A stretch of 6,480 nt of DNA from Thermosulfurimonas dismutans. Its GTDB lineage: Bacteria; Desulfobacterota; Thermodesulfobacteria; Thermodesulfobacteriales; Thermodesulfobacteriaceae. Positions 2,273-5,512 of the stretch are shown here, one piece after another. The stretch lies in assembly GCF_001652585.1 (NCBI RefSeq), contig NZ_LWLG01000027.1, positions 1 to 6,480 on the forward strand. The letters are read 5' to 3'. The stretch's first letter is position 1. Every line of letters begins with the position of its first letter. The notes beneath the pieces are model-generated. The model worked only from the letters and a program-made list of their open reading frames with translations. It was not told where the DNA came from and made no database searches. The position numbers and the translations under genes are program-made.

Positions 2273-2879
2273 GGGCTTTTACCTGGTCGGAGGGATCGCT
2301 CTGGCTTTTCGCTATCAACATCGGATTTCTAAGAATCTGGCCTTTTTTTCTTTGCCGGAATTTGCGGATAGATATTTCCCGCATGATGAGTTATGGAGTA
2401 AACTTTCCTCTCTCGGAGAAATTTTAGACTATCGTAAAGGAACGGTTACTGGCATGGTGAACGGGGTTAAGGTGTCTTACTTCTCTTACCGTTACCCTCT
2501 ACTACAACCGCTTCTGACCCTAGAGGAATTGCCCGGTGTCAAAATGGCTTCAGATGAGGATATAGCGGTGGCTAAGTTCATTGCGGTAGCGCAAAGAGGA
2601 GAAAAGAAGGATTTTTATAATCTGTGGTTTCTTATGCGGAAGAGGGGCTGGGATCTGAAATACCTCTTTTGTTTATGCACCCGAAAGTATAATTTAAAAG
2701 AAGAAAATATCGCTTTTTTGCTCAAAAGTTTTACCTTTTTTGAGGACGCCGAGGGTCAGGAAATTGAACTTCCCGAAGGCGGGGTCCTGGATAAAGAGAC
2801 GTGGGAAGACATAAAAGAGTTCTTCCGGAAAGAGGTTAAAAGGTTGACCTTAGAAGACCATCCGGAGGTGTGCGGATGA
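2208..2879 (+). CDS. Nucleotidyltransferase AbiEii/AbiGii (DUF1814)-family protein with substituted catalytic motif
   Basis: The ORF is 223 aa. FYLVGGIALAFRYQHRISKNLAFFS aligns with the family pattern FYLAGGTALAL..gHR.S.DLDFF. Further family-like blocks are GVKVSYFSYRYPLLQP, MASDEDIAVAKFIAVAQRGEKKDFYNLWFL, LLKSFTFFEDAE and WEDIKEFFRKEV. The TGA stop at 2877-2879 overlaps the alaS ATG. Confidence 0.8.
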   Translation: MKNWLKLQLETLEILSHSGLTEGFYLVGGIALAFRYQHRISKNLAFFSLPEFADRYFPHDELWSKLSSLGEILDYRKGTVTGMVNGVKVSYFSYRYPLLQPLLTLEELPGVKMASDEDIAVAKFIAVAQRGEKKDFYNLWFLMRKRGWDLKYLFCLCTRKYNLKEENIAFLLKSFTFFEDAEGQEIELPEGGVLDKETWEDIKEFFRKEVKRLTLEDHPEVCG

Positions 2880-5512
2880 AGGGACGCGAGATCCGTAAGG
2901 CTTTTCTTGATTATTTTGCTCAAAACGGACACGAGATCGTACCCTCGTCCTCACTTGTTCCGGCAGACGACCCCACGTTGCTTTTCACCAACGCCGGAAT
3001 GGTGCAGTTCAAGAGGGTCTTTCTGGGCGAGGAGGAGAGGCCTTATAAGCGGGCGGCCTCCTGCCAGAAGTGTATGCGGGCGGGAGGTAAACACAACGAT
3101 TTGGAGAACGTGGGCTACACCGCCCGGCACCATACTTTTTTCGAGATGCTCGGAAACTTCTCGTTTGGGGACTACTTTAAGGCCGAGGCCATCGCCTACG
3201 CCTGGGAATTCCTGACGAAAGTCCTCGGGCTTCCAAAAGAAAGGCTATACGCCACGGTCTTCAGGGAAGACGACGAGGCGGAGGAGCTCTGGCGCAAAAT
3301 ATCCGGGCTTCCGGCGGAACGCATCGTGCGCCTAGGGGAGAAGGACAACTTCTGGGCCATGGGCGATACCGGGCCCTGCGGCCCTTGCTCGGAGATTATC
3401 TACGATCAGGGCCCGGAGGTGGGCTGCGGCCGGCCCGAGTGTGCTCCCGGTTGTGACTGCGACCGGTTCCTAGAGATCTGGAACCTGGTCTTCATGCAAT
3501 ATGAAAGAGACGAGTCCGGGAATCTTCAGCCTTTGCCGAAACCTTCCATTGATACCGGGATGGGGCTTGAGCGTATCGCCTCGGTTATGCAGGGCGTTCA
3601 GAGTAACTACGATACCGATCTCTTTGCCGGAATCATGCAGGGTATCGCCGAGCTCTCCGGTAAGGAATACCGGGAGAGTCCGGAGGTGACGGCCGCCTTC
3701 CGGGTGATTGCGGACCACGTGCGGGCCGCCACCTTCCTCATGGCCGACGGGGTGGTGCCCTCCAATGAGGGGCGGGGTTATGTCCTCCGGCGCATTATCC
3801 GCCGGGCCGAACGCTTCGGAAGAACCTTGGGTCTTACCGAACCCTTTCTTTTCAGACTGGTGGCCACGGTGGTTGCCGAATTCGGGGACTTTTATCCTGA
3901 GCTGAAACGGGCCCAGGGTGCGGTGGAAAAGATCTTACAGATAGAGGAAGAGCGTTTTCTTGAGACCCTGGCCCGTGGGCTTGAGATCCTGGAAGAGGAA
4001 CTTAAGAGCCTTTCCGAAAAGGGTGCCAAACGTATTCCCGGCGAGGTGATCTTTCGTCTTTACGATACCTACGGTTTCCCATACGACATCGTGCGAGACA
4101 TCGGACTTTCCCGGGGCTTTGAGCTCGATATGGAGGGTTTTGAACGGGAACTCGCTCAGGCCCGCGAGAGGAGCCGCAAGAGCTGGAAGGGCGGGCTGAC
4201 GAAAGCCCCGGAGGTTTTAAAGGACCTCACCGAAAGGCTTTCGGAGACCCCCTTCGTGGGCTACGAGGGCCTTTCGGCCAAGGCCGAGGTCCTAGCCTTG
4301 ATAAAGGAGGATCAGGAAATCCCTGAGGCGCACGCCGGAGAGAAGGTCCTTGCGGTCTTTTCCCGCACGCCTTTTTATCCCGAAGGCGGTGGTCAGGTCT
4401 CGGACACCGGTCTGGCGCTGGCCCCGGGGTTCAAGGCCGAAGTCAAAGACGTGCGTCGTTTCGGAAACCTTATCTTGCACGAACTCGAGGTGGTGGAAGG
4501 GACCCTTCGTAAAGGCATGGAAGTGGACCTGGAGGTCCTTTCCGAAAGGCGGCTGGCCACCGCTCGGCACCACACCGCTACCCATCTCTTGCACGCCGCT
4601 TTGCGGAAGGTCCTCGGAGAACACGTGCGGCAGGCCGGGTCTCTCGTGGCCCCGGATCGCCTCCGGTTCGATTTTACCCACTTTGAGCCTCTGACCTTGG
4701 AGGAGATCCGTTCGGTTGAGGAGCTGGTAAATGCCAAGATCCGCGAGAATCTTCCGGTTGAGGTCAAGATGGTCTCCTTCAAGGAGGCCCTTTCCATGGG
4801 GGCTATGGCCCTTTTCGGGGAAAAATACGGAGAACGGGTGCGCGTGATAAAGATCGGGGACTTTTCGCTTGAGCTCTGCGGCGGCACCCATGTCTCCCGC
4901 ACGGGGGACCTCGGCTTCTTCAAGATCGTGGCCGAAGGGAGTGTTTCAGCCGGAGTCAGACGTATCGAGGCCTTGGTCGGTGAGCCAGCCCTCAAATGGG
5001 TCTTCTCCCTTGAGGACGAAAGGTTCAAGCTGGCCGGACTCCTCAAGTGTTCGCCCTCGGAGATCGAGCACCGGGTTTCGGGGCTTTTGGCCAGAATCAA
5101 GACCCTTGAGGAGGAGATCAGTCGCCTCAAGCGGGGGGAGGTTAGGAAAACCCTGGAAGAAAAGCTTCAGGAGGTCTCGGAGGTCTCAGGGGTTAAGGTT
5201 ATCTGCGCCGAGGTTCCGGCCAGAGACGCTTCCGAGCTTCGGGAGATGGGCGACTTTTTCAGGGACAAACTCGGCTCCGGAGTGGTCTTCCTCTATGCCG
5301 TAAACGACGGGAAGGTCCAGATGGTGGCCATGGTCACCAAGGACCTTGCCAAGAAGATTCCCGCGGGGAAACTCATGCAGGCCGTGGCTCCCGTGGTGGA
5401 CGGCCGGGGTGGGGGACGCCCGGAGATGGCCCAGGGAGGCGGCACTCGCCCGGAGGCGGCCTCCGGTATCAAGGAGGTCCTTCTCGAAAAAGTGAAGGAA
5501 CTAGTCTCGTAG
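2876..5512 (+). CDS. alaS: Alanine--tRNA ligase (alanyl-tRNA synthetase)
   Basis: The protein is 878 aa from ATG 2876, with GGAGG at 2864-2868 and 7-nt spacing. The track start at GTG 2870 adds two residues. Hallmark blocks are DDPTLLFTNAGMVQFK, FEMLGNFSFGDYFK, GPCGPCSEI, EIWNLVFMQY, the editing-domain HHTATHLLH...CGGTH, and the C-terminal GGGRPEMAQGGG. The N-terminus is collinear with E. coli AlaRS as I recall it. Confidence 0.97.
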   Translation: MKGREIRKAFLDYFAQNGHEIVPSSSLVPADDPTLLFTNAGMVQFKRVFLGEEERPYKRAASCQKCMRAGGKHNDLENVGYTARHHTFFEMLGNFSFGDYFKAEAIAYAWEFLTKVLGLPKERLYATVFREDDEAEELWRKISGLPAERIVRLGEKDNFWAMGDTGPCGPCSEIIYDQGPEVGCGRPECAPGCDCDRFLEIWNLVFMQYERDESGNLQPLPKPSIDTGMGLERIASVMQGVQSNYDTDLFAGIMQGIAELSGKEYRESPEVTAAFRVIADHVRAATFLMADGVVPSNEGRGYVLRRIIRRAERFGRTLGLTEPFLFRLVATVVAEFGDFYPELKRAQGAVEKILQIEEERFLETLARGLEILEEELKSLSEKGAKRIPGEVIFRLYDTYGFPYDIVRDIGLSRGFELDMEGFERELAQARERSRKSWKGGLTKAPEVLKDLTERLSETPFVGYEGLSAKAEVLALIKEDQEIPEAHAGEKVLAVFSRTPFYPEGGGQVSDTGLALAPGFKAEVKDVRRFGNLILHELEVVEGTLRKGMEVDLEVLSERRLATARHHTATHLLHAALRKVLGEHVRQAGSLVAPDRLRFDFTHFEPLTLEEIRSVEELVNAKIRENLPVEVKMVSFKEALSMGAMALFGEKYGERVRVIKIGDFSLELCGGTHVSRTGDLGFFKIVAEGSVSAGVRRIEALVGEPALKWVFSLEDERFKLAGLLKCSPSEIEHRVSGLLARIKTLEEEISRLKRGEVRKTLEEKLQEVSEVSGVKVICAEVPARDASELREMGDFFRDKLGSGVVFLYAVNDGKVQMVAMVTKDLAKKIPAGKLMQAVAPVVDGRGGGRPEMAQGGGTRPEAASGIKEVLLEKVKELVS

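Follow-up and report, generated by a model that had tools for sequence, protein, structure and literature searches.

A two-gene module of toxin-antitoxin type directly upstream of alaS in Thermosulfurimonas dismutans, with degenerate motifs in its nucleotidyltransferase-like gene

Described relatives of the module

The toxin-antitoxin (TA) system with the closest layout to the locus described here is MenAT1 of Mycobacterium tuberculosis (Rv0078B-Rv0078A), in which a short toxin is paired with a very short antitoxin (PMC10435456). The window analyzed is an entire 6480-base contig of Thermosulfurimonas dismutans, taken from a 454/Newbler assembly and ending in repeats and low-GC DNA, and it shows alaS, the gene for alanine--tRNA ligase (AlaRS), placed directly after a nucleotidyltransferase (NTase)-like gene and a small partner open reading frame (ORF). 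As in MenAT1, a DUF1814-fold protein of about 190-220 amino acids follows a very short partner predicted to be helical, whereas the T. dismutans module differs in standing inside the alaS leader. We put at roughly 65% the reading that a promoterless, terminatorless cassette was inserted in the alaS leader and is co-transcribed with alaS, its NTase being inert and a passenger rather than a partner of AlaRS.

The NTase-like gene (2208-2879, + strand, 223 amino acids) is of the short DUF1814/AbiEii type. The first-pass annotation had placed it in the AbiEii/DUF1814/MenT NTase family, and this assignment is borne out by a match to PF08843 (E 2.6e-9, 37.8 bits against a cut-off of 22.5) and by matches to four PADLOC AbiEii models; no NCBIfam model matches the protein, and a profile match to AbiGII (9hlo) has an E value of 1e-4. 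The AlphaFold2 (AF2) model, calculated from 14 sequences with a predicted local distance difference test (pLDDT) score of 91.9 and a predicted template modeling (pTM) score of 0.89, has a Pol-beta-type NTase fold with a C-terminal helical domain. The top Foldseek matches of this model in the PDB are JHP933 (E 1.5e-5), MenT1 (5.9e-4) and MenT4 (1.2e-3), with TM1012 and ANT(2'')-Ia also present. JHP933 of Helicobacter pylori (PDB codes 4O8S and 4OK0), the best structural match with a template modeling (TM) score of about 0.55, is of similar length but has 16% identity to the window NTase. Its genomic context is a plasticity zone, and we know of no link between JHP933 and alaS. MenT1 (Foldseek matches 8AN4 and 8AN5) shares the S/T-x-D ... 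K ... D layout with a K-to-D spacing of 15, whereas the window protein is about 15% identical to it and has N43, A45 and N138 replacing essential aspartates (D41 and D152 in MenT1). AbiE (AbiEi-AbiEii, an abortive-infection and type IV TA system known from Streptococcus agalactiae and Lactococcus) and AbiGii are related through PF08843, the PADLOC AbiEii models and the defense-island-like neighborhoods of the family; in contrast to AbiEii, the window NTase is about 60-80 residues shorter and has a degenerate motif, and its partner is not a COG5340/AbiEi winged-helix protein.

The current annotation of the gene (TDIS_2111) has 175 amino acids starting from a TTG at residue 49 and drops the N-terminal 48 residues (2208-2351), which are present in all homologues and carry the GG and degenerate DxD motifs; as the homologues are 203-224 amino acids long, this annotation is too short. 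Relatives of the NTase are encoded on at least 403 metagenomic stretches, none was found on the viral contigs of IMG/VR, and phage carriage was rejected.

The small partner ORF, a putative antitoxin (TDIS_2110), is located on the + strand at 2003-2272 (89 amino acids) or, as annotated, from ATG 2012 (86 amino acids), and is conserved in the loci of the family. A partner homologue of about 85-100 amino acids is found directly upstream of the NTase gene, usually overlapping it, in all nine first loci (L001-L009) and in 13 of the closest metagenomic loci, and in the Thermodesulfatator atlanticus locus it is an uncalled ORF. The 65-nucleotide (nt) overlap of partner and NTase genes is identical in the window, L001 and L005, and the window partner keeps all residues that are invariant in the family alignment (W11, D12, R23, L42, W61 and L65). 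Because a conserved, tightly linked partner lies first and overlaps the NTase gene, the pair is a two-gene module of TA type with an uncharacterized partner family and can be counted as a divergent member of the DUF1814 TA/Abi family. The partner ORF has no Pfam, PADLOC or NCBIfam match, a profile search against the PDB gave nothing with E <0.8, and a word-indexed protein search returned only the partner itself; weak DUF6922 matches occur in 2 of 13 members of the partner family. A single-sequence AF2 model (pLDDT 59) is helical at low confidence. The partner belongs to no known antitoxin family tested (AbiEi/COG5340 and MenA1), and with its 86-89 amino acids and a W-D...R...FWK motif it differs from MenA1, being without detectable similarity to either MenA1 or the PDB.

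TA cassettes in housekeeping operons and point-mutated toxins are already familiar. In Escherichia coli relA-mazEF, a chromosomal TA module is co-transcribed with housekeeping genes. The window locus resembles relA-mazEF and the degenerate chromosomal toxins in having a TA cassette in a housekeeping unit and a toxin apparently inactivated by point mutation with its ORF intact; in contrast to relA-mazEF, the cassette is placed upstream, in the 5' leader of an essential gene, where it would be transcribed and translated before that gene. A search of the available literature gave nothing on an alaS-TA linkage, a degenerate AbiEii or a cassette in the leader of an aminoacyl-tRNA synthetase gene.

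Limits of the cassette and its place in the alaS leader

A conserved promoter-like element of alaS is present on the + strand at 1974-2013, composed of TTGGCC (1976-1981), a 17-nt spacer and TAAAAT (1999-2004), and is the sole full sigma-70-like match on this strand in 1900-2875 at a threshold of 9/12. The element is identical at 33 of 40 positions to L094:3921-3960 of F29, a relative in which alaS has no cassette (score 45; 200 shuffles, mean 20.4, maximum 31), and window 1977-2010 is identical at 32 of 34 positions to L176:1921-1954, likewise cassette-free (score 58, shuffle maximum 30); the next-best score for the element among 348 locus strands is 26. The aligned place in T. marina reads TTGACC-17-TAAGTT. 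The distance from the element to the alaS ATG is 30-80 nt in F29, L176 and T. marina compared with about 860 nt in the window. With a genus-conserved element of this kind upstream of the cassette, the sequence agrees with the earlier proposal that the module sits in the path from which alaS would be transcribed.

The homology between the leader of the window and those of cassette-free relatives ends at about 2010-2024 and resumes at 2860. The stretch at 2860-2875 (+ strand), with the Shine-Dalgarno sequence (SD) GGAGG at 2864-2868, appears as the retained 3' end of the alaS leader on comparison with L176, F29 and L175, the last being a contig from a metagenome-assembled genome (MAG; GCA_054044485.1) that begins within the NTase gene. 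Window 2860-2873 (ATCCGGAGGTGTGC) is identical at 14 of 15 positions to the L176 leader ATCCTGGAGGTGTGC (score 23, shuffle maximum 20), and 2860-2875 resembles TTCGGGGGTGTGTGA of F29. The gap between the two flanks is about 13 nt in L176 compared with about 850 nt, comprising both cassette ORFs, in the window. The inserted two-gene cassette would thus have approximate limits of 2011-2859 (+ strand, about 850 bp) and take the place of about 13 nt in an ancestral alaS leader some 36 nt long. Partner-family homology starts at residue 9, which corresponds to base 2027, and the NTase homology and the confident part of the model end at about residue 215, base 2852; as the partner homology begins at 2027, the partner start codon and first few codons appear to be borrowed from the alaS leader. 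No terminator-like site is present on the + strand in 2005-2875, and a search around the cassette for the marks of a transposon-like element, namely direct or inverted repeats in the flanks or a duplicated target site, gave only short chance-level matches. Insertion and co-transcription with alaS is the simplest reading because the flanks match cassette-free leaders and no terminator lies between the element and alaS. The F29 leader (L094:3950-4000) contains a 16-codon ORF (MGSINREYCFDLFGGV, then a stop) that starts in the -10 region and has its TGA abutting the alaS ATG; it is probably fortuitous, because L176 has ATA in place of its ATG.

The alaS gene (2876-5512, + strand, 878 amino acids) is matched by TIGR00344 (E 8.6e-302) and the Pfam domains tRNA-synt_2c, tRNA_SAD and DHHA1. 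Its start is ATG 2876 (MKGREI...) and not GTG 2870, because all relatives start at the aligned ATGAAGGG. The junction is as it was first described, with 2861-2880 reading tccggaggtg tgcggatgaa, GGAGG at 2864-2868, a spacer of 7 nt, the alaS ATG at 2876-2878 and the NTase TGA at 2877-2879. The pair has the layout of an operon pair, with a stop/start overlap (ATGA, 2876-2879) and the alaS SD within the NTase ORF. Where prokaryotic genes overlap, they do so most often by the four bases ATGA, and as all Thermosulfurimonas alaS genes begin ATGAAG or ATGAAA, an ORF entering from upstream in that frame necessarily ends at this point; by chance standards the overlap is not special. That alaS has no intergenic region of its own, raised earlier as a peculiarity, is true in the window but is no oddity, being common for alaS in other bacteria. 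The recA or recX gene ends within about 30 nt of the alaS start, or overlaps it, in a dozen or more of 41 sampled loci, and in L023, L038, L042 and L044 the upstream RecA/RecX, at a distance of a few bases or overlapping, has its identity confirmed by Pfam. The recA-recX-alaS cluster is similar to the window in that alaS adjoins or overlaps its upstream gene, with the SD inside that gene and no intergenic space for a promoter, and differs in that the upstream genes are housekeeping genes rather than an acquired TA-type cassette; in congeners recA is found downstream, on the other strand.

A 6-bp hairpin (2859-2864 / 2873-2878) covers the AUG and one base of the SD in this thermophilic host. 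As a candidate coupling structure this hairpin is not significant, as the region does not fold more stably than shuffled sequences (z -0.65 at 37 C). An Rfam scan of the whole window gave no T-box, riboswitch or other RNA leader upstream of alaS, with only a chance match to a long non-coding RNA.

Catalytic residues and the origin of the overlap

Alignment with relatives shows changes at the catalytic positions of the window NTase-like protein. The Pol-beta motif, S-x-D-x-D in the family, is degenerate (S41-K-N43-L-A45; 2334-2342, + strand), and the codon at 2619-2621 (+ strand) is AAT for N138, where the family and L175 have D (GAT). The consensus of motifs I and II (hGG[TS], then S/T-x-D-x-D, including the metal-binding aspartates D80 of MenT3 and D41 of MenT1) is replaced in the window by GGI and S-K-N-L-A. 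At positions 43, 45 and 138, respectively, aspartate is present in 12/12, 12/12 and 13/13 of the close relatives and in 77/80, 79/80 and 80/80 of those from metagenomes, and the window copy is alone among 93 family members in being without D43, D45 and D138. The T30 position, isoleucine in the window, is T or S in 79 of the 80 metagenomic relatives, none of which has lost more than one of the T30, D43, D45 and D138 positions. The window protein keeps 40 of the 46 columns that are conserved at ≥90% among its 13 closest relatives, and the six losses include T30I, D43N, D45A and D138N; K123, D135 and the RGEKKDF motif are retained.

The family S41-x-D43 matches T39-x-D41 of MenT1 and S78-x-D80 of MenT3. 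Motifs III and IV of the family consist of a conserved Lys and Asp in the C-terminal half (K137 and D152 in MenT1, K189 and D211 in MenT3). The K123-D138 spacing of 15 equals that of K137-D152 in MenT1, and from this spacing and the motif context D138 is probably the equivalent of MenT1 D152. The MenT1 mutants D41A, K137A and D152A and the MenT3 mutants D80A, K189A and D211A are non-toxic, and MenT3 D80A is without NTase activity (PMC10435456, PMC7450476). Since the aspartates lost in the window match MenT positions essential for toxicity, the NTase-like protein is very probably catalytically silent, as had been suggested from the sequence at first pass, with D43N, D45A and D138N all falling at near-invariant aspartate positions.

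The L175 contig permits a comparison of the NTase-alaS junction in a second lineage. Its AlaRS is 82% identical to that of the window and groups with the T. dismutans clade in an AlaRS neighbor-joining (NJ) tree, and its NTase part is 69% identical to window residues 133-223, the KKDFYDVW stretch keeping D138. The L175 NTase ends ...EEVKRLVLKD-TAA, followed by 14 bases (CCGGAGGTGTGCGG) and then ATGAAGGGACGCGAG, such that the TAA lies 14 nt before alaS; the spacer and alaS start are identical to the window, where 2862-2875 match exactly. In the DNA alignment of window 2604-2900 with L175:1-297, a CAT codon (2859-2861, + strand) is present where L175 has its NTase stop TAA. Loss of the TAA adds six codons (HPEVCG), with the NTase ORF running through the alaS SD to the TGA of ATGAAG. 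Because L175 keeps both TAA and D138, the stop loss and D138N appear to be derived in the T. dismutans lineage. Of the ATGA coupling initially proposed, the overlap itself stands, but as an ancestral design it does not, the TAA and 14-nt spacer of L175 pointing to a secondary loss of the stop codon.

The proportion of synonymous differences (pS) between the window and L175 is 0.79 for the 3' part of the NTase gene and 0.61 for alaS, both saturated, and the nonsynonymous divergence (dN) is 0.21 for the NTase C terminus and 0.09 for alaS. Saturated synonymous sites together with a low dN suggest that the linkage is old and that the NTase has been under purifying selection for most of that time. 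A junction confined to a single strain was a view dropped once L175 was examined, as the L175 lineage has the same NTase-alaS junction.

From these comparisons the following course of events may be proposed. The cassette, comprising the partner of 86-89 amino acids and the NTase, would have entered the alaS leader between the promoter-like element and the SD in an ancestor common to the T. dismutans and L175 lineages. Transcription would most likely start at or near 1976-2011 and yield a tricistronic mRNA (partner, NTase, alaS), with the partner translated, possibly leaderless from ATG 2012, and the NTase coupled to it through the 65-nt overlap. AlaRS would be translated from its own GGAGG, possibly with some termination-reinitiation at the AUGA. 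In the T. dismutans lineage the NTase would then have been disarmed (D43N, D45A and D138N) and the TAA lost, giving the ATGA overlap. The cassette would then be a selfish or defense-type passenger shielded by its position, and its ORFs have plausibly stayed intact because a deletion might take the promoter or SD with it and a nonsense mutation would have polar effects on the essential alaS.

Distribution and alternative explanations

The cassette is absent at alaS from all 80 loci of other genomes in the survey, which are among the matches listed, and none of about 87 other alaS loci counted has it; the closest relatives were reached through a protein search and contig look-ups. Conversely, alaS is next to none of the 89 other NTase-family loci (9 + 80). 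As neither set shows the linkage, it is taken as a lineage accident and not a family trait, and the suggestion that the NTase acts on the tRNA(Ala)/AlaRS axis is unsupported. The proposal that the module was acquired fares better, as T. marina, F29 and four related MAG or metagenome contigs (L092, L176, L177 and L178) have no such module upstream of alaS. In T. marina, L092, L176 and L178 the divergent lpxD gene is found in its place, in L177 unrelated minus-strand genes, and in F29 rpsT and a tRNA-Ala(CGC) gene. The F29 tRNA-Ala(CGC) gene (L094:3786-3861) adjoins the alaS promoter-like element, which places the synthetase beside one of its tRNAs; ARAGORN finds no equivalent in the window.

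The NTase gene has a G+C content of 44.0% and the small ORF one of 47.9%, compared with 58.9% in alaS, and the counts given in the first-pass annotation (23/60 at 2641-2700 and 40/60 at 3361-3420) are exact. The genome mean of T. dismutans is 50.1% (PMC4911364). Because alaS is high (59%) against this mean and the cassette only modestly low (44-48%), G+C alone is weak evidence of acquisition, and its use as proof of a foreign origin of the cassette is weakened.

Other copies of the cassette often lie in defense-type neighborhoods, with CRISPR RAMP genes and ZorA, MNT/HEPN, or a helicase and SIR2, and the NTase family may often ride in other operons without a promoter of its own. In the set formed by L007 (3576-7388), L005 and L006, one copy is placed between an Upf1-like helicase gene, with which it has a 1-nt overlap, and a SIR2 gene, one lies beside type III CRISPR RAMP genes and ZorA, and one beside an MNT/HEPN pair. 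The cassette of Thermodesulfatator atlanticus (L001:5790-7610) is located just upstream of a CxxCxxCC (PF03692) gene, and in a Thermodesulfobacteriales MAG (L010:4444-4938) a CxxCxxCC gene lies directly upstream of alaS; any link between the two is possibly coincidence.

Two metagenomic contigs (L090 and L091; JGI 3300013787 and ENA ERZ23486713) have alaS genes with 97.2% identical DNA, and in these the similarity to the window is lost at the alaS ATG, with 12/41 identity upstream. This contradicts the suggestion that the linkage makes the module impossible to lose. An exact DNA pattern scan of metagenome contigs for an upstream extension of these relatives gave no match. The homology of window and L091 also ends at 5811, 20 nt past the HU gene that follows alaS, where L091 continues into a gene of 427 amino acids that is cut by the contig end; the gene past HU is enolase in L090 and the congeners, and the alaS-HU block is thus flanked on either side by other sequence than in the 97% relatives. 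Provided that the NJ topology holds, the 97% lineage would have lost or replaced the cassette junction, and the contig breaks 31-41 nt upstream of alaS are consistent with population variation at that point. The short upstream ORF of L090/L091 (FRKQIPEPALRRRK, then a stop) is too short to interpret.

Several points weigh against an inserted, co-transcribed and inert passenger. The element at 1974-2013 is termed promoter-like on a 9/12 consensus and its conservation in relatives, and its -10 box overlaps ATG 2003, such that with a start site near 2011 the small ORF would possibly be leaderless from ATG 2012. The silence of the NTase-like protein is argued from its residues. L175 covers window residues 133-223 onward, with the partner, the DxD motif and the promoter outside it. 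The NJ tree of AlaRS is built on one gene, carries no support values and has a short internal branch, and the contigs of the 97% relatives end 31 nt (L090) and 41 nt (L091) before alaS, which limits that comparison to 41 nt. Finally, perfect TATAAT hexamers within the NTase gene, at 2616-2621 and 2688-2693, could drive alaS independently.

The last of these points leads to the main alternative account, in which an internal promoter in the AT-rich 3' half of the NTase gene drives alaS, the ATGA overlap and the upstream element have no bearing on alaS expression and the cassette is a mere neighbor. This account is not exclusive of the inserted passenger, as both promoters could fire, and we hold it as possible but doubtful. 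The two hexamers lie in a region of 40-43% G+C, and that at 2616-2621, 255 nt upstream of the alaS ATG, is completed by the D138N change itself (GAT in L175 to AAT). However, no recognizable -35 box (2/6 matches at best) or TG extension accompanies either of them, L175 has TATGAT and TACAAT at the two places, and the only full promoter-like site is the element conserved with cassette-free relatives.

The direction of the change may also be reversed: the genus would have had the cassette from its ancestor on, leaders without it (F29, L176, T. marina and others) would have arisen by deletion, and the present-day function would be the same as for an inserted passenger. The flank homologies fit deletion as well as insertion, and the junction seems to be lost or replaced in the 97% relatives. 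The six cassette-free genomes or contigs are, however, the larger sister group and have three different upstream neighbors, a short leader of one and the same architecture is found in F29, L176 and T. marina, the Thermodesulfatator atlanticus copy is at an unrelated locus and the G+C of the cassette is below the genome mean, which together make deletion unlikely.

On the functional hypothesis of the first-pass annotation, the silent protein would still bind tRNA 3' ends or AlaRS and, co-expressed with the synthetase, would now modulate the charging of tRNA(Ala). The NTase-alaS linkage has outlasted synonymous saturation in two lineages, dN being much lower than dS, the ORF is intact, the 40 of 46 conserved positions retained include K123 and RGEKKDF, and MenT relatives bind tRNA acceptor ends (PMC7450476, PMC10435456). 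Against this, the 89 other family loci are without a link to alaS and about 87 other alaS loci are without the cassette, the 97% relatives differ upstream of alaS, and L175 keeps D138 and its own stop, so that silence and overlap are not common features of the linkage. The MenT toxins studied show no alanine specificity, MenT1 having "no preference for specific tRNAs" (PMC10435456), and the integrity of the ORF is equally explained by selection against polarity. Apart from the persistence of the linkage nothing specific favors recruitment of this kind, and it is regarded as highly improbable. A broader form of co-option, in which the NTase docks on tRNA or AlaRS, or obligatory translation of both cassette ORFs before alaS governs AlaRS synthesis according to translational capacity or tRNA status, is given just as little credence; if it were true, the linkage would have persisted because it is useful and not merely because it is hard to delete.

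An assembly artifact, suggested by the short 6.5 kb 454/Newbler contig with its repeat and low-GC ends, is scarcely credible for the junction, as the NTase-alaS junction recurs in the independent L175 assembly, where the 14 spacer bases are identical.

The remainder of the window contains further genes and repeats. An AAA_14/DUF4143 ATPase gene with a winged-helix segment (694-1911, - strand; Pfam, and PADLOC candidate defense family PDC-S01, E 3e-105) is the divergent neighbor of the cassette, and none of the relatives examined has it upstream of alaS. A pair of small low-GC ORFs of 65 and 84 amino acids that overlap each other (307-743, + strand) is without a Pfam match. At the contig end (1-157) a G-rich unit of about 32 nt (TAGGGAGGGTTAGGGAGGGG-like) occurs in three copies, and this repeat is probably what broke the assembly there. 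Between the ATPase start and the promoter-like element is an inverted repeat (1913-1947) with 16-nt arms, GTTGAAATTAAACCAC atc GTGGATGAATTTCAAC, that are 88% complementary; it could be an operator and was not seen in the F29 region read. Downstream, an HU/IHF-family gene (5501-5791, - strand) is convergent on alaS with a 12-nt overlap at the alaS 3' end (5501-5512); this 12-nt convergent overlap recurs in L092 (6629-6640), and similar overlaps are found in other Thermosulfurimonas loci. Past the HU gene, a NERD-domain gene of 31% G+C (5841-6422 and beyond, - strand) runs off the contig end.

The locus leaves knowledge of AlaRS regulation unchanged. It counsels caution toward guilt-by-association function calls for TA toxins that lie beside a supposed pathway, and it flags an uncharacterized subfamily of short AbiEii-type NTases with a partner of about 90 amino acids. 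The L175 copy, with D138 and its own stop, and the apparently disarmed copy of T. dismutans S95 form a matched pair for experiment. The locus would be a natural example of a selfish TA or defense cassette in the leader, about 36 nt long, of an essential gene, kept until synonymous saturation and in one lineage stripped of its catalytic aspartates and stop codon, in which overlap and 'operon' structure with that gene can arise by accident.

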